Shown in pieces: positions 1-5,716 of a stretch of 64,000 nt of DNA (its first letter is position 1; each line of letters opens with the position of its first letter). The stretch is from a bacterium (GTDB lineage: Bacteria > Vulcanimicrobiota > JABDET01), in the NCBI GenBank assembly GCA_021817145.1, contig JAKAVV010000001.1, forward strand, positions 151,279 to 215,278, read 5' to 3'. The position numbers were made by a program, and so were the translations under genes. The notes beneath the pieces were generated by a model. It worked only from the letters and a program-made list of their open reading frames with translations. It searched no databases and was not told where the DNA came from.

Positions 1-487
1 CGTTTTTATCACTCCTTCGGCTTCTGCTACTTCTTCTCCGACTGTAAAACAGCTTGCCACCACAGTGAATAGGTTGGCAAATCAGGGGATTGTCTTTAAA
101 AAAGATGTGGTTTTACCAGCTAATGAACTGCAAGATGAGTTGAACACCATGAATCGAGTCTCAGCTTTGCAAAGTCTTGCTTATTATGTTAAAACAAGGG
201 GTCCTGTGAGTTACAGTGAAGTAACTTCTGAATTAGTCGCTTTTAAAACCCAGCATCCTAATATGGCTAAAGTCATCAGATTCCAGATTTTACCTGAAGC
301 TTTAAAAAAGGTCTCTTCTAAAGTCACCAAAATTCAAGCCAATGTGGATTTCATGTTTTACTCTGGATTAGGTGTTATATCAGACAAAAATCTCCAAAAA
401 AGCTCAGAAGCTGTTTCTCTGGGATTAGATATGGAAGATGCTGCTTTTACAACAGCGGAATTGGTGAAATCGGGAAGCACTCCGTAA
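1..487 (+). CDS. Hypothetical protein, 5'-partial (frame open from the window start)
   Basis: The frame reads VFITPSASATSSPTVKQLATTVNRLAN... from position 2 without a stop until TAA at 485-487. No family recognised. Confidence 0.7.
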   Translation, partial: VFITPSASATSSPTVKQLATTVNRLANQGIVFKKDVVLPANELQDELNTMNRVSALQSLAYYVKTRGPVSYSEVTSELVAFKTQHPNMAKVIRFQILPEALKKVSSKVTKIQANVDFMFYSGLGVISDKNLQKSSEAVSLGLDMEDAAFTTAELVKSGSTP

Positions 488-566
488 GATGAAAGAGATC
501 TAAACCCTGTTAAGGCGTTTTAAGAAGTATAGAGCAGAGGATTTTAGTGGACCAAATGATTCAAAA

Positions 567-1232
567 TTGAAAGAAATTTACGATTTTGTCAGCGAGAAGA
601 ATGATAGGTTTAGGTGCTTTGTGCAGAGTGAATTGGATAAAAGTGGACTCTCGTATAAAATTAAACGTAGGGCTAAAGATCCTCCCTCCATTTATCAAAA
701 ATTAGTCAAGGATAAATCAAGTATAGGCGACTTGAAAGATCTATCAGGGGTCAGGGTTAATTTGGACGTTACAAAATCTAATTTTGAAGAATATTATAGA
801 GTTCGTGATATTTTGAAGGGTAATACCAATTACCGTCAAGTCCCAGGAAGATTTAAAGATACGATTAAAAATCCGCTCCCAAACGGGTACACTGGCAGAC
901 TCCATGACAATTTTAAAGATGATGATGGAGTGACGCATGAAGTTCAAATAGGCTCCAATGATCTCGAAGACTTCATTGGTCATAAGATTACCATGAAGGA
1001 TGGGAAGAAAATTTCGTTACATGATCTTTTTTATAAAGGGAAAGATCTTGGTATTACGGTTTCTCCAGATCTTGCAAATGAGTATAAAAATCTTATTAAT
1101 AAAATCACCCAAATCAATGGTAAAGGGGAAAATCTTAATTCAACATTAGATGCTCAAGAAGTCCAGGATTTTTTTCGTAGAGTCGAGAATTCTATTAATG
1201 AGGGGGGTAATCCAAATGAAAACAAAGATTAA
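567..1232 (+). CDS. Small alarmone synthetase (RelA/SpoT synthetase-only domain), divergent
   Basis: Motifs RAKxxxSxxxK, DLSGVRV, NGYTGRLH, EVQI and HxxxYK (HDLFYK). The TTG start is uncertain; an in-frame ATG at 489 is blocked by TAA at 501. Confidence 0.8.
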   Translation: MKEIYDFVSEKNDRFRCFVQSELDKSGLSYKIKRRAKDPPSIYQKLVKDKSSIGDLKDLSGVRVNLDVTKSNFEEYYRVRDILKGNTNYRQVPGRFKDTIKNPLPNGYTGRLHDNFKDDDGVTHEVQIGSNDLEDFIGHKITMKDGKKISLHDLFYKGKDLGITVSPDLANEYKNLINKITQINGKGENLNSTLDAQEVQDFFRRVENSINEGGNPNENKD

Positions 1233-1623
1233 GAAAGACAATTGTGAAACCCAAACCTCTAAAAGCATTCCGACAAATACGACAAATACTAATAGGGAAG
1301 TCAATGCTCTCCTGGTTTTTAAAAGACATGAAAATGATGAGCCTATTCAAACAGATGATCTGTTTTCTTCTTCGGGGGAAATGGTGTACTGCGAAGTTTA
1401 CAAAGCCGGAGGTCGTTCTTCTCAAAAAGACCCTGGTATACTTCTTAAACAACAAGAGAACAAATTGGGGAAAACATATCCCTGGCCTGATTATGAAATT
1501 ATCCGTGAAGGAATCAGCGTTTCAAAAGACAAAGATGCGCTTGAAAAGTTTTATTTGGAGTATCCTGAGTGTAAAAAATACCCGGTTCAAAACCTTGAAG
1601 ATGGAATTCAAGTAAAAGATTAG
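1216..1623 (+). CDS. Hypothetical protein (candidate antitoxin/immunity or accessory protein)
   Basis: ATG at 1216 follows a GAGGGGGG RBS and overlaps the synthetase end; its TAG directly abuts the next ATG at 1624. Confidence 0.7.
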   Translation: MKTKIKKDNCETQTSKSIPTNTTNTNREVNALLVFKRHENDEPIQTDDLFSSSGEMVYCEVYKAGGRSSQKDPGILLKQQENKLGKTYPWPDYEIIREGISVSKDKDALEKFYLEYPECKKYPVQNLEDGIQVKD

Positions 1624-2238
1624 ATGAATTTATTGCAAAGTGATTTTTTTACAGATCAAAGCTTTGAAAAAGAGCTGATGGAAATAAAAGACCCTGAATT
1701 TCTAAAGAAAGAGCTTTTAGAAAAACTCAAAGATGGGCAGAAATATGCGGTCATGGAAGAAGCAGTAGAGTTTGCTGAAAAAGCGCATAAGAACCAGAAA
1801 AGAGATGAGGGAACATCCTACATCTTACATCCACTTCGAGTTGCGATTCGACTTTATCACAGTGGGTACCGTTCCCCTGAAATTTTAGCTGTTGCTCTGC
1901 TGCACGATGTTCTCGAAGATTCTCAAACCAACCCTATGACTTTGAAGAAAAAATTTGGTTCGCGAATAGGAGATGCTGTTCTTACTTTGAGCAAGCAAAC
2001 CGTAAATGGTAAAATCTCCAATCCCGTTTATTTTCAGAGACTTCAGAGCGCTGGAGCTGAAATTCAAGCGATTAAGATTTTTGATCGGATAGATAATCTT
2101 TATTCTTTGCGTTTAATTGATAATCACAAAAAGAAGGAACAGTATCTGCAAGAAACTCAAAAGTATTTTCTCGATTTAGCAAAAAGTTCTTCTGTTTTAA
2201 AAAAAAATTTAGATTTAGCTATCTCGCAGATCTCTTGA
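1624..2238 (+). CDS. Small alarmone hydrolase (HD domain, Mesh1/SpoT-hydrolase-like)
   Basis: Motifs AHKNQKRDEGTSYILHP, LLHDVLED and IKIFDRIDNL. Confidence 0.88.
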   Translation: MNLLQSDFFTDQSFEKELMEIKDPEFLKKELLEKLKDGQKYAVMEEAVEFAEKAHKNQKRDEGTSYILHPLRVAIRLYHSGYRSPEILAVALLHDVLEDSQTNPMTLKKKFGSRIGDAVLTLSKQTVNGKISNPVYFQRLQSAGAEIQAIKIFDRIDNLYSLRLIDNHKKKEQYLQETQKYFLDLAKSSSVLKKNLDLAISQIS

Positions 2239-2292: not shown

Positions 2293-3285
2293 TCAGATAT
2301 TTAAGTTTTTAAAGGCTGCCTTAAACTGTTGGCTGGCTTTCTCGGCAGCATCCTGAATAGGTCCCTCCAGTTCAGGGTTAAACGAGTTGGGGACAAGGGT
2401 GCTTAACAAGCCGGGTGAAGCTCCAACAGGAGTATCGGAATTTGAAGCTAATTCTTTTTTCTTTTCCAGCAGGAACTGCTGCATTTTACCTTGATACTCC
2501 TGGAGTTCTTGCCCTTCAGGAGATTGACTTAATTGAGAAGTAAAGCTATTTTCATCATCTTTGAATCGTTTGAATAGTTCATCCGCTTTTTCTTTCAGTT
2601 CTGAGGTGGGAAGTCCAACTTTTAAGATGTTCATTTGCAAGTTTTCTTCAAATTCATTCAGACCAGTTTCAGCTCTGGCTACTGAAGCCTGGAGCTGGGC
2701 TTGAACCTGTGGTTCTGTTAACTGCCCTATATTATTTTGGATCTCTTGTTGATACGATTCTGCGAAACTTTTAACGTAAGCTTGTTTTTGTTCAGCTGTA
2801 TTTTGTTGAAAAAGGGAGGTTTGTTTAGATTCCCAATTTTGTCTGGCAGCAGCCTGTGTCTGTGTTTCCCCACCATTAAACAGCTTTGGATTTCCTTGTG
2901 AATCCAGGAGAGGGTTTCCGTTTTTGTCAAATTCATAGTGTTGGGAAGAAAAGAGCTCACCTTTTTCTTGCATCAAATTTCCAAATTCATTTGACCAGAT
3001 CGTACTGTGAACATTGTAAAAAGTGTTTGCTTTTTGGGCTGCTGTGTCTGCCGCTTCTTTTGGGAAAGTGGGGAGCCCTGATGTATTCATCAGCTGCTGT
3101 TCTTCTTCCATCTGCCTCTGCATTTGCTGCTGCATGAGAAGCATTTCTTGATGAATTCTGTTAAATACTAACTCCTGAGTCTGGTTATTAGACGCTAATC
3201 CTTGATAAGCTTTTTGAAAAACGCCTGACTGATTTTGAGAACCGGCAGATCGAATTATTCCTAAAGCTAACCCTGCTAACTGCAT
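2293..3285 (-). CDS. Gln-rich, probably coiled-coil hypothetical protein
   Basis: 330-aa ORF with Q/E-rich helical composition; no family recognised. Confidence 0.75.
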   Translation of the reverse strand: MQLAGLALGIIRSAGSQNQSGVFQKAYQGLASNNQTQELVFNRIHQEMLLMQQQMQRQMEEEQQLMNTSGLPTFPKEAADTAAQKANTFYNVHSTIWSNEFGNLMQEKGELFSSQHYEFDKNGNPLLDSQGNPKLFNGGETQTQAAARQNWESKQTSLFQQNTAEQKQAYVKSFAESYQQEIQNNIGQLTEPQVQAQLQASVARAETGLNEFEENLQMNILKVGLPTSELKEKADELFKRFKDDENSFTSQLSQSPEGQELQEYQGKMQQFLLEKKKELASNSDTPVGASPGLLSTLVPNSFNPELEGPIQDAAEKASQQFKAAFKNLNI

Positions 3286-3291
3286 ACTTTT

Positions 3292-3334
3292 ATTTTATCA
3301 CAAATTTGTTAAATTTTTGTTACCTTTTTGTAAA
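3292..3334 (-). promoter_or_regulatory. Extended -10 promoter (probably leaderless) with three direct repeats spaced 11 bp apart
   Basis: Minus strand TG-A-TAAAAT ends 6 nt before the ATG at 3285. Plus-strand GTTAA/GTTAC/GTAAA start at 3308, 3319 and 3330. Confidence 0.5.
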
Positions 3335-3377
3335 TATTTTCTTAACAATTTTATCTTTTTAAATAGAAGACCTGGGT

Positions 3378-4652
3378 TTATAGTTTTAATCTTCCGCCCA
3401 TGTATGGTCTCAGTATTTCAGGGACAACCACTGACCCGTCTTCTTCTTGATAGTTTTCAAGAATCGCTATCATGACTCTTGGGAGGGCAAGCCCAGAACC
3501 ATTTAAAGTATGCACAAATTCTGGCTTTTCTTGAGGGGCTCTGCGAAATCGGATATTTGCCCTTCTTGCCTGGAAAGCTTCAAAATTAGAAACAGAGGAG
3601 ACTTCAAGCCACTTCTCTTCAGCAGGAGACCAGGCTTCTATATCATAGCATTTTGCAGCAGAGAACCCCATGTCACCCGCGCAGAGCAAGAGGACTCGAT
3701 AAGGGATATTAAGCACTTGGAGAATCTCTTCAGCATCATTCAGCAGTTTTTCATGTTCCTGGTAAGAATCTTCTGGATTGGTTAATTTGACAAGTTCTAC
3801 TTTGTCAAATTGATGAAGTCTTTTCAATCCTCTGGTTTCAGATCCTGCTGCTCCAGCTTCTCTTCTGAAACAGGCTGTATAGGAAACATAATATTTAGGC
3901 AGCTCCTCAAAATTTAAAATCTCGTCTCGATGGAGATTAGTTACAGGAACTTCTGCTGTTGGGATTAAAAAAAGATCATCTTTTTCACAGGAATACATGT
4001 CCTCTTCAAATTTTGGCAGCTGCCCTGTTCCAACCATAATTTCTCGTTTTACAAGATAAGGGGGATAGATTTCTTTATATCCATGTTTTGCCACGTGAAA
4101 ATCCAGCATGAATTGAATTAAAGCTCTTTGAAGTTTCGCTCCTGTTCCTGTATAAAGAGAGAAGAGGGGTCCAGATAGTTTAGAAGCCCGTTTTTGGTCT
4201 AAAATTTCAAGTGATTCTCCGATTTCCCAGTGAGGTTTTATTGGAAAATTGAATTTCCTTTTTTCCCCCCAGGTTCTGATGATTTGATTTTCTGAAGCGT
4301 CTTTTCCACTGGGAACAGTTTCATGAGGGATGTTTGGAAAAAATAATAGGCGCTGGTTTAAAGTGTTTTCTAAATTGGTTAATTCAGTTTCTATCTCTTT
4401 AATTTTAAGATTGATTTTTCTCACTTCTTCCTGTTTTTCTTCCGTGTTTTCCCCTGCCTTTTTTAATTTTCCGATCTGTTCAGATGTTTGATTTCTTTCT
4501 TTTTTTAATCCATCGGATTGGATGAGCAGCTGCCTCCACTTCTCATCTAATGACAGAAACTCATTTAGAACAGAGATAGATGTCCCCCCTCTTTTCATTA
4601 AACCTTCTCGTATTTTTTCGGGCTGCTGTCGGATAAATTTTTGTTCCAGCAT
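3378..4652 (-). CDS. serS: Serine--tRNA ligase
   Basis: Motifs [27 protein letters not shown] and HTLNGSGLA; N-terminal coiled arm. Confidence 0.98.
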
Positions 4653-5716
4653 TAGATTGCCAGAGCAGACATTCGCTTTAATTCTTCAGGTCTAGCTGCT
4701 TTTGCCTGCGCCTCCTCCATGTCAATTAAATTTTTCTTTGAGAGATTGCGAAGAAATAGCTCTTGTGAAATCATTCCTTGATCCCTGTTGTTATTCATTA
4801 AGGAAACCAGCTGCTGCAGTTTTCCTTCCCTTATGATGTTTTTTACATTGGCTGTTCCTGTTAAGATTTCCAGTCCCAAAACAGTTCCTCCCCCTTTTTT
4901 GTTGAGTAAAAGCTGGCTGACTGCGAGTTCAAGTCCAGCAGAGATCTGGCTTTTTATGATTTGTTGATAATGGGGGGGCGCCATCTCAATGATTTGTTCT
5001 AATGCCATAATAACTCCATTGGCTTTTATAGTGGCAATGACCAGGATTCCAGAGGATGCCGCTGCCAGGACTTCTGTGGTTGTTTCAAAATCTGGAAATT
5101 CTGTTACAGCCATGATATCTGGATTTTGTCGTAAAGCCGTTTGAATCGCTTGTTTGTAAGTTGGGGCATCTGTTCCGATTTCTCTTTGATAGATAACCCC
5201 TTTTTTATTTCGAAGCAAGAATTCAATTGGGTTTTCTAGACTGACAATCTGAATCGACCGATTTTCCAGGAGAAAATCCAGGAGAGCTGCTAAAGTTTGA
5301 GATTTTCCACTTGCTTTTGGTCCTGCAATCAAGATCAAGCCTTGAGGTTTTACGACTGTTTCTTTTAAAATAGGGGGAAGTCCAAGTGTTTCAAGTGACT
5401 GCGGGGTAGGGGGTGTTAAACGAAAAACAGCTGCTAATGAGCCTCTTTGATAAAAGATATTAGCCCTGAACCGGCTTACTCCTTCGACACTGTACCCTGT
5501 ATTGAGTTCTTTCTGCTTCTCAAGCGTTTCTTTTTGGGATGGAGTCAGCGCATTGTCTAAAATAGTTTTAACTTCAGTTACGGATAAAATGTCATTGGTC
5601 AAAGGAAGAAGGAGATTTTCTTGAGTTTTGCAGAGAGGAGGACTTCCGCCTACAAGATGCAGAATTAAGCCTTTTCTTTCAATCATGAGAATGAGGAGTT
5701 GATTTAAATCCATCAT
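4652..5716 (-). CDS. PilT/PilU-family ATPase with degenerate motifs
   Basis: [11 protein letters not shown], Walker [20 protein letters not shown] and ALRQNPD; the His box is lost. Confidence 0.85.

Follow-up and report, generated by a model that had tools for sequence, protein, structure and literature searches.

Two-layer protection against alarmone synthetase toxins has already been published, together with the gene order in which it may be encoded. In the apk2-iapK-aph1 units of prophages, as described in PMC12226406, the gene for a MuF polymorphic toxin is followed by that for IapK, which occludes the acceptor site, and then by that for Aph1, which hydrolyses (p)ppApp. FaRel of Cellulomonas marina is reported to be flanked by a small alarmone hydrolase (SAH) antitoxin and by a specific type II antitoxin (PMC7229694, PMC11782079). 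Exported alarmone synthetases (EAS) have been described with PAAR/Rhs, DUF4157, LXG, MuF or XopAD in a set of 1,369 sequences, 15 of which have Rhs/PAAR carriers and 7 DUF4157, and some EAS are reported to make only (p)ppGpp (PMC12691689). RelA/SpoT-like warheads on carriers of the kind associated with type VI secretion (T6SS) or with extracellular contractile injection systems (eCIS) are already in print (PMC3482391, PMC12691689), and polymorphic toxins are said to diversify through recombination with toxin cassettes that stand alone (PMC3482391). Here we describe a three-gene cassette at the beginning of a 64,000-nucleotide stretch of bacterial DNA (hereafter the window, G000:C28:151279-215278) from a 2.66-Mb genome, G000, assembled in 42 contigs with 41% GC and 97% completeness. 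The cassette encodes, in this order, an alarmone synthetase, a small protein and an SAH. With a probability of roughly 45%, we read it as a horizontally acquired, stand-alone (orphan-type) toxin/dual-immunity cassette of polymorphic-toxin or exported-alarmone-synthetase ancestry.

All three open reading frames (ORFs), as read from the window sequence, lie on the forward strand. The frame of the synthetase (SYNTH) toxin domain spans 504-1232 and comprises 242 codons followed by a TAA at 1230-1232. The middle gene (1216-1623, ATG at 1216 to TAG at 1621-1623) encodes a predicted immunity or antitoxin protein of 135 amino acids; it overlaps the synthetase gene by 17 nt (1216-1232), and a GAGGGGGG run lies 8 nt upstream of its ATG. 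The gene for the 204-residue SAH (1624-2238) starts with an ATG that directly abuts the TAG of the middle gene. The three genes, their overlap and the TAG/ATG junction at 1623/1624 were, upon re-reading of the ORFs, as given in a preliminary description of this DNA, and the enzymatic identities proposed there for the first and third products held as well. The synthetase matches RelA_SpoT (PF04607) in Pfam with an E value of 2.5e-13 and 50.7 bits against a cut-off of 27, and the hydrolase matches HD_4 (PF13328) with an E value of 4.1e-12 and 46.6 bits against a cut-off of 27.2; NCBIfam is in agreement.

The catalytic motifs of the SYNTH domain of RelA/SpoT homologues (RSH) are RxK..S..K, DxxGxR, an aromatic G-loop and ExQ. 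The synthetase of the cassette displays RxK..S..K, DLSGVR, GYTGRLH, EVQIGS and HDLFYK and carries R35, K37, S41, K45, D58, R63, Y108, E125 and Q127 (numbering of a 221-residue form of the protein), most of which are invariant in its clade. A word-based homologue search returned the query alone. An exhaustive HMMER search over 1.84 billion representatives yielded 356 proteins at E <= 0.001, of which 20, including the query, were found at E <= 1e-10 and are referred to here as the clade. The 19 relatives (P0003-P0021) were detected with E values from 1.5e-28 to 1e-10 at 30-45% identity, the matches covering most or almost the whole of the query, and RelA_SpoT was recognized in 18 of them at E <= 0.001 (Pfam). 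K37, S41, K45, D58, R63, R111, H113, E125, Q127, H152 and D153 are invariant in all 20 members, and the clade consensus reads RAKSxxSIxGKL, DLSGxR, WGYTGRxH, EIQVGS and LHDLTGYKG. The motifs listed in the preliminary description are present, and the deviations from canonical small alarmone synthetases that it pointed out are not peculiar to this gene: GYTGRxH, EIQVGS and HDLxYK are the signature of the whole clade.

The company that the SYNTH domain keeps in these relatives points to delivered toxins. In nine of the 19, a protein of 395-1533 amino acids ends with the domain; seven carry a further C-terminal extension after it, and the remaining three are short or fragmentary, among them the stand-alone, 253-residue P0008. 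Pfam recognized trafficking domains in four relatives, namely a PAAR_motif in P0009 and P0011 and eCIS_core (PF13699) in P0004 and P0013, and by their domain content these are the architectures expected of T6SS- and eCIS-delivered polymorphic toxins. With PAAR in 2/19 and eCIS_core/DUF4157 in 2/19, the clade resembles Apk1/Tas1-Tis1 and the EAS in placing a SYNTH warhead on T6SS or eCIS carriers. Relatives that combine such a trafficking domain with a small ORF downstream of the toxin, as seen in all nine metagenome loci described below, would count as polymorphic toxins or EAS; the window copy would not, since it has no carrier domain (its frame is open from 504 only, leaving no N-terminal delivery domain) and no PAAR, eCIS_core or Phage_sheath_1 match was found in the 97%-complete genome. 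Judged from its sequence, the cassette would work like the warhead-plus-immunity part of such a toxin alone. A separate feature of some clade sequences (P0003, P0016 and that at L042:3-1019) is a Gly/Ala-rich hydrophobic extension of ~110-170 amino acids after the SYNTH domain, with no N-terminal carrier; it might serve in membrane anchoring or export.

Sequence and fold comparisons place the clade nearer to long RSH enzymes than to Tas1 or CapRel. Among PDB chains, the best sequence match of the synthetase was a long Rel domain (7oiw, E 4.8e-10) and that of the clade profile was 9s6k (E 2.4e-17), followed by RelP and RelQ; no chain of Tas1 (6ox6), CapRel or another named toxic small alarmone synthetase (toxSAS) was matched at E <= 1 by either the synthetase or the clade profile. 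The AlphaFold2 (AF2) model of the synthetase, built on an alignment of 8 sequences, reached a mean predicted local distance difference test score (pLDDT) of 90.5 and a predicted template-modelling score (pTM) of 0.85. Foldseek, run against a library that included the Tas1-immunity complex 6ox6, ranked Rel SYNTH domains first (8acu, E 1e-8) and then small alarmone synthetases (SAS) of the RelQ/RelP type, with CapRel (7ztb, 14% identity) at rank 18 and Tas1 (6ox6, E 8e-5, 15% identity) at rank 32. In contrast to its match with Rel, RelP and RelQ, the similarity of the clade to 6ox6 is confined to the level of the fold, and neither sequence nor profile comparison brings it out at E <= 1. The clade shares RxK..S..K, DxxGxR and ExQ with long RSH, RelP and RelQ but differs from them in having GYTGRxH, one residue longer and with an invariant Arg, in place of GYQSxH, and EIQVGS in place of ExQIRT. 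A further difference is a helical C-terminal part specific to the clade (model helices 188-233), and the window protein is devoid of HD, TGS and ACT domains.

The order of toxin, small ORF and SAH recurs in relatives. A neighbourhood scan, the check that the preliminary description had proposed, confirmed none of 60 pattern matches in genome contigs and nine of 132 in metagenomes as clade members, the nine metagenome loci having a GC content of 58-71%. A small ORF follows the toxin in all nine, with a start located between 4 nt before and ~25 nt after the toxin stop codon. Two families can be told apart among these ORFs. Family A (77-81 amino acids) is represented in L034, L035, L036 and L042 and, truncated, in L040 and L041, a single region present twice; family B (81 amino acids) is represented in L037, L038 and L039. 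A word-based search with one of the relatives' small ORFs returned three close homologues, none of them named. Directly after the family A ORF comes an SAH gene in L036 (HD_4, E 3.7e-9) and in L035, where the gene is cut by the contig end with HD..ED still visible; in L038 an SAH gene (HD_4, E 3.7e-10) is found 1.2 kb further downstream, past two lipoprotein-like genes. SAH is thus present in three of the nine loci. The contigs of L034, L037 and L039 end within 0.2-1 kb, and no SAH was found in the available DNA of L042 and L040/L041. Two side observations concern the same loci. L040:691-2953 and L041:5739-7842 each hold, beside a 495-residue ORF, a toxin so decayed that just its last ~110 residues match, together with a family A ORF in truncated form. 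The lipoprotein-like genes of L038 (6125-7400) and L037 (1046-1746) are paralogous (LLAAC motif, 35% mutual identity) and have no Pfam match; the L038 pair lies between the family B ORF and the SAH gene, and these may be further immunity or accessory genes.

The succession of toxin, small ORF and hydrolase known from apk2-iapK-aph1 is found in the window cassette, L035 and L036. The likeness extends to the make-up of the unit, a toxin followed by a small active-site-blocking protein (here a prediction) and an HD-type hydrolase. It ends at the toxin itself, for the window copy lacks MuF or any other N-terminal delivery domain, and its clade matches Rel, RelP and RelQ by sequence but no (p)ppApp-synthetase toxin chain. 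With the C. marina aTfaRel(SAH)-faRel-aT2faRel locus the cassette has in common three genes for an SAS, a protein antitoxin (here predicted) and an SAH, a chromosomal location and the lack of a delivery domain. There, however, the toxin is central and the SAH upstream, whereas here the toxin comes first and the SAH last, and the nearest relatives of the window synthetase are secreted polymorphic-toxin domains rather than toxins of toxin-antitoxin (TA) systems. The cassette is therefore not new in kind and brings no new principle, and the suggestion that the module is undescribed could not be upheld, its logic being that published for apk2-iapK-aph1 (PMC12226406) and for the SAH-FaRel-AT2 arrangement (PMC7229694, PMC11782079). 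What appears particular here, going by sequence comparison, is a SYNTH clade nearer to long RSH than to Tas1, two immunity families without annotation, the missing carrier and the missing canonical start. No publication linking DUF4157 with RelA_SpoT was found, and the sequence sets of PMC12691689 and PMC7229694 may already contain the clade.

Pfam, NCBIfam and PADLOC gave no match for the middle protein; a word-based search of 5.8 billion proteins returned it alone, and the ESM Atlas gave no usable feature match, its structure rows coming from a model with a pLDDT of 0.35. Profile A6, which represents the middle protein, gave as its best match among all PDB chains unrelated enzymes at E 0.088, the presence of an IapK chain in that set not having been checked; with this proviso, no homology to IapK or Tis1 was found. 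MAFFT aligned it along the whole of family A at 20-28% identity, with F35, R37, E60, L84, Y88, P89, P117 and E118 invariant, and hhalign aligned it with the same family over 66 columns at 24% identity (P 0.0053). The protein may accordingly be a divergent member of family A that is extended by ~30 residues at its N-terminus and contains two internal insertions, a weak but position-consistent relationship. Given the lack of Pfam, NCBIfam and PDB matches, it does look like an immunity family that has escaped annotation, but the link to the small ORFs of the relatives is weak.

Co-folding, likewise suggested in the preliminary description, placed the middle protein over the catalytic site. The complex of the 242-residue synthetase with the middle protein received ipSAE interface scores of 0.90, 0.90 and 0.02 (median 0.90) in three runs, the best of three controls scoring 0.00. 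The mark set for this score is reached by 58 of 80 solved complexes and by 2 of 110 mismatched pairs, counts which are only rough since own alignments were used. The runs share at least 51% of their contacts, and the pLDDT of the partner was at least 47. The predicted interface includes R56, K58, S62, K66, D79, G82, R84, E146, Q148, H173, D174 and K178 (242-residue numbering), which are clade-invariant residues of the catalytic motifs; the N-terminal helix is covered too. Such a placement is what would be predicted for an immunity protein that occludes the active site. Taken with the PAAR and eCIS_core relatives and the recurring gene order, the co-fold favours the earlier notion of an effector-immunity-type module with two protective layers, as a prediction.

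As to the third gene, the metal-binding and catalytic motifs of SAH are H..HD..ED..D..N. HPL, HD..ED and D..N stretches are visible in the product of the cassette, including in its alignments to Rel and SAH chains, and its matches in the PDB are Rel hydrolase domains, a P. aeruginosa-type SAH, MESH1 and a (p)ppApp hydrolase (E 1e-12 to 6e-10). The SAHs encoded downstream of the relatives' toxins were matched by phmmer at E 1.1e-13 (L036) and 2.9e-12 (L038). G000 also encodes a canonical long RSH elsewhere, in a 735-residue frame matching HD_4 at E 1.1e-50 and RelA_SpoT at E 1.6e-44; the synthetase/hydrolase pair of the cassette is thus not the housekeeping enzyme. Two SAH alleles are on record, differing by V90A; 10 contigs carry the form of the window and 17 the other form. 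The synthetase and the middle protein are each represented by one sequence across 26-27 contigs.

The cassette sits in an indel of ~1.8 kb (488-2320) that has no counterpart in G001, a genome of the same genus. By BLAST, window positions 3-487 match G001:C9:28506-28987 at 76% identity and positions 2321-5709 match G001:C9:29111-32502 at 77%, and 123 bp separate the two flank matches in G001. The gene order of the latter, established by tblastn, is a reductase-like gene, a 177-residue, secreted-looking ORF (80% identical to that of the window over 177/177 residues), a convergent 330-residue ORF (75% identical) and the seryl-tRNA synthetase (SerRS) gene. In G002, a 67%-complete genome of the same family, SerRS adjoins the reductase-like gene with neither accessory ORF between them. 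When the loci of G001 and G002 were searched by tblastn, none of the three cassette genes was detected; among the genomes compared, the lineage of the window is the only one to have the cassette. Of 401 genomes sampled from the phylum and searched with the 242-residue frame at E <= 1e-10, G000 itself was the one with a clade-level match; at E <= 0.001, 37 of 60 relatives gave matches, every one of them to long-RSH frames, mostly of 720-830 amino acids. The cassette has a GC content of 0.34-0.38, the genome as a whole one of 0.41 and the DNA on either side one of 0.36-0.44. An environmental chlamydia was considered as the host and dropped, since the best SerRS match that bears a name (70%) is to a metagenome-assembled genome labelled Candidatus Melainabacteria and the others, at about 52-59%, are spread across many phyla.

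The unknown ORF directly upstream, mentioned in the preliminary description, does not belong to the unit: it encodes 177 amino acids with a signal-peptide-like N-terminus and is kept at 80% identity in the cassette-less G001. Nor did the idea of a fusion between this ORF and the synthetase hold, as their frames differ, two stop codons lie between them, and the ORF is full length in G001. More generally, the interval from the reductase-like gene to SerRS (G000:C28:149881-155930, window -1397 to 4652; L026, L029 and L032) is a variable spot, holding nothing in G002, the 177-residue ORF and the Q/E-rich, convergent 330-residue ORF in G001, and the cassette between those two in G000. Neither accessory ORF belongs to a Pfam family. 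An AT-rich inverted repeat of 18 nt with 78% complementarity (561-578 and 2260-2277) brackets the cassette and is probably due to chance.

The start of the synthetase gene is a problem of its own. The preliminary description placed it at 489; in the assembled sequence, however, a reading begun at that ATG stops after four codons at a TAA (501-503) in the same frame, and the frame is open from 504 only. The first starts of the ATG/GTG/TTG type are TTG 567, yielding 221 amino acids (one gene call on record), and GTG 621, yielding 203 amino acids (gene call on 26 contigs), with no longer call among the 27 contigs on record for the protein cluster. A clade hidden Markov model (HMM) built from nine relatives, the window sequence being excluded, scored the 203-residue form at 153.4 bits, the 221-residue form at 160.5 bits and the 242-residue frame at 183.8 bits. 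The 21 codons preceding TTG 567 (…LRRFKKYRAEDFSGPNDSK) thus add 23 bits, and they align to a clade segment reading L.A.DF.G.DDPRL..I. Alignments to the metagenome relatives by tblastn begin at residues 2-5 of the 242-residue frame, and residues 1-21 of the model are well ordered (block pLDDT 87-97), with a long helix from residue 20. Altogether, the gain in HMM score, the alignment and the ordered model indicate that conserved coding sequence reaches the TAA at 501 without an ATG, GTG or TTG start.

Three explanations are possible on the evidence of the sequence. ATG 489 may have been the original start of a 247-residue protein, to be compared with the 253 residues of P0008, the fifth codon after which numbering from this ATG has turned into a stop; translation may begin at the non-canonical CTG 507, which by eye has an AAAGAG run 9 nt upstream; or shortened forms of the synthetase alone may be made. 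If it is not an interrupted start, the stretch 489-503 on the forward strand (ATG, the three codons AAA GAG ATC, and TAA) may be a four-codon mini-ORF in the frame of the synthetase. A possibly coincidental resemblance is that (M/L)-K-E-I can be read both at 489-500 (ATG AAA GAG ATC) and at 567-578 (TTG AAA GAA ATT).

If the toxicity, binding mode, substrate, expression and biological role that we infer for the acquired toxin/dual-immunity cassette hold, the SYNTH product of gene 1 would use ATP to pyrophosphorylate a purine nucleotide at its 3'-OH, or possibly the CCA end of a tRNA. The product of gene 2, as cognate immunity protein, would bind across the cleft for ATP and acceptor and block catalysis, and the SAH encoded by gene 3 would strip the 3'-pyrophosphate from any product that escaped. 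With no delivery domain, no matching secretion machinery in the genome and no canonical start for the full domain, the toxin is probably produced at a low level or with its N-terminus cut short, and what has most likely been of value in the retained cassette is its two immunity functions and/or a self-contained toxin-antidote unit.

Several points weigh against reading the cassette in this manner. The fold of the middle protein is uncertain in itself (pLDDT 38.2 for the protein alone in single-sequence AF2, 48-75 in the complex), one of the three co-fold runs failed (ipSAE 0.02), and the tie to family A is loose: the hhalign probability is just 6.8%, the family A HMM scores the middle protein at 7.5 bits, a value matched by 3 of 3000 shuffles, and phmmer with the middle protein alone found nothing at E <= 10. 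The SAH is as close to solved SAH and Rel hydrolases (~1e-12) as to those of the relatives (~1e-13), so that common descent of the unit as a whole is not established. The indel contains no mobility gene, tRNA or convincing terminal repeat, and the call of gain versus loss relies on three genomes. Finally, the toxin frame is otherwise intact and has kept every catalytic motif in an AT-rich genome, as fits a gene still in use, a circumstance that favours the first of the alternatives considered below.

That alternative, and the main rival, is an active chromosomal TA or abortive-infection module of the toxSAS type, in which the toxin would be translated from CTG 507, TTG 567 or GTG 621, the middle protein would serve as type II antitoxin and the SAH as type IV antitoxin, and the toxin would be released upon phage attack or stress. 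We hold it to be on the unlikely side, with a chance still substantial enough to be taken seriously. The genes overlap or abut in the manner of TA operons, the toxin frame is intact with all its catalytic motifs, and the cassette is stable, the same proteins recurring on 26-27 contigs with one substitution in the SAH; FaRel, as described in PMC7229694, provides a direct precedent of a three-gene TA system. Candidate ribosome-binding sites are discernible by eye in the AAAGAG mentioned above and in an AGGTG located 4 nt before GTG 621. Translation from GTG 621 would, however, remove most of helix 20-45 of the model, the full domain is left without a canonical start, and the nearest relatives of the synthetase are delivered toxins rather than TA toxins. 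Nor does the surrounding DNA suggest a defence function. The only PADLOC match among the cassette proteins was that of the synthetase domain to the candidate PDC-S33 (4.3e-8), with no named defence system, and the neighbours are housekeeping genes (SerRS and PilT-like genes) rather than a defence island, so that nothing points to the anti-phage or sensor role proposed in the preliminary description. Promoter-like sites upstream numbered 8 versus 6.5 expected from shuffles, and terminator-like sites 2 versus 2.2, neither being above chance. On the whole, that description was largely right in what it observed, and its interpretation was right in kind but not new in kind.

More speculatively, the GYTGRxH/EIQVGS/HDLxGYKG clade could be an uncharacterised toxic SYNTH branch that derives from synthetases like long RSH, separately from Apk1/Tas1 and the named toxSAS, has two immunity families of its own, and was captured here as a chromosomal three-gene toxin-antidote unit with a weak or non-canonical start (CTG 507 or TTG 567). 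This is a doubtful proposition for the present; if true, the cassette would be a link, caught in the act, between interbacterial weapons and TA or defence modules of the toxSAS type.

Less probable still, and in our view improbable, is that the cassette is a decaying remnant that arrived by recombination, lost the start of its toxin and is on its way to losing all three genes, with no present function. An in-frame TAA directly before the conserved domain, a genome devoid of a delivery system and the absence of the cassette from the sister species would all be expected of such a remnant, and L040/L041, with their toxin fragment and truncated small ORF by the 495-residue ORF, illustrate that decay does occur among the relatives. 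Against this, ORFs of 242, 135 and 204 codons are still open in DNA of 36-38% GC, both enzymes have kept their catalytic residues, and a single conservative substitution in the SAH is the sole variation among about 27 contigs. A non-toxic pair of accessory synthetase and hydrolase tuning (p)ppGpp, with the middle protein as regulator, has very little to be said for it, since, even though the SYNTH domain is nearer by sequence and fold to long Rel and RelP/RelQ than to Tas1/CapRel and the genome, given its long RSH, uses (p)ppGpp signalling, the clade is found fused to PAAR and eCIS_core with an immunity-like small ORF next to the toxin in 9/9 loci, none of the other 400 phylum genomes sampled has a clade-level match, nor does the sister species have the cassette, and the middle protein is predicted over the catalytic cleft and not at an allosteric site.

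Should the cassette indeed be an acquired toxin with dual immunity, it would bring to the growing number of toxic alarmone synthetases a clade of SYNTH toxins and a family of small immunity proteins that have no annotation in Pfam, NCBIfam or the PDB, and would offer a compact case (242 + 135 + 204 amino acids) for comparing immunity by binding with immunity by enzymatic action against a single toxin. It would also show a warhead-plus-immunity block leaving its delivery gene and entering a small genome without a matching secretion system.

A last observation concerns the long RSH enzymes met in the course of the searches. In five genomes of genus g5 (G019, G041, G036, G033 and G024, of family f4; loci L011, L013, L015, L016 and L018), two frames of long-RSH size (about 780-826 amino acids) occur in tandem on one contig, ~2.4 kb apart.

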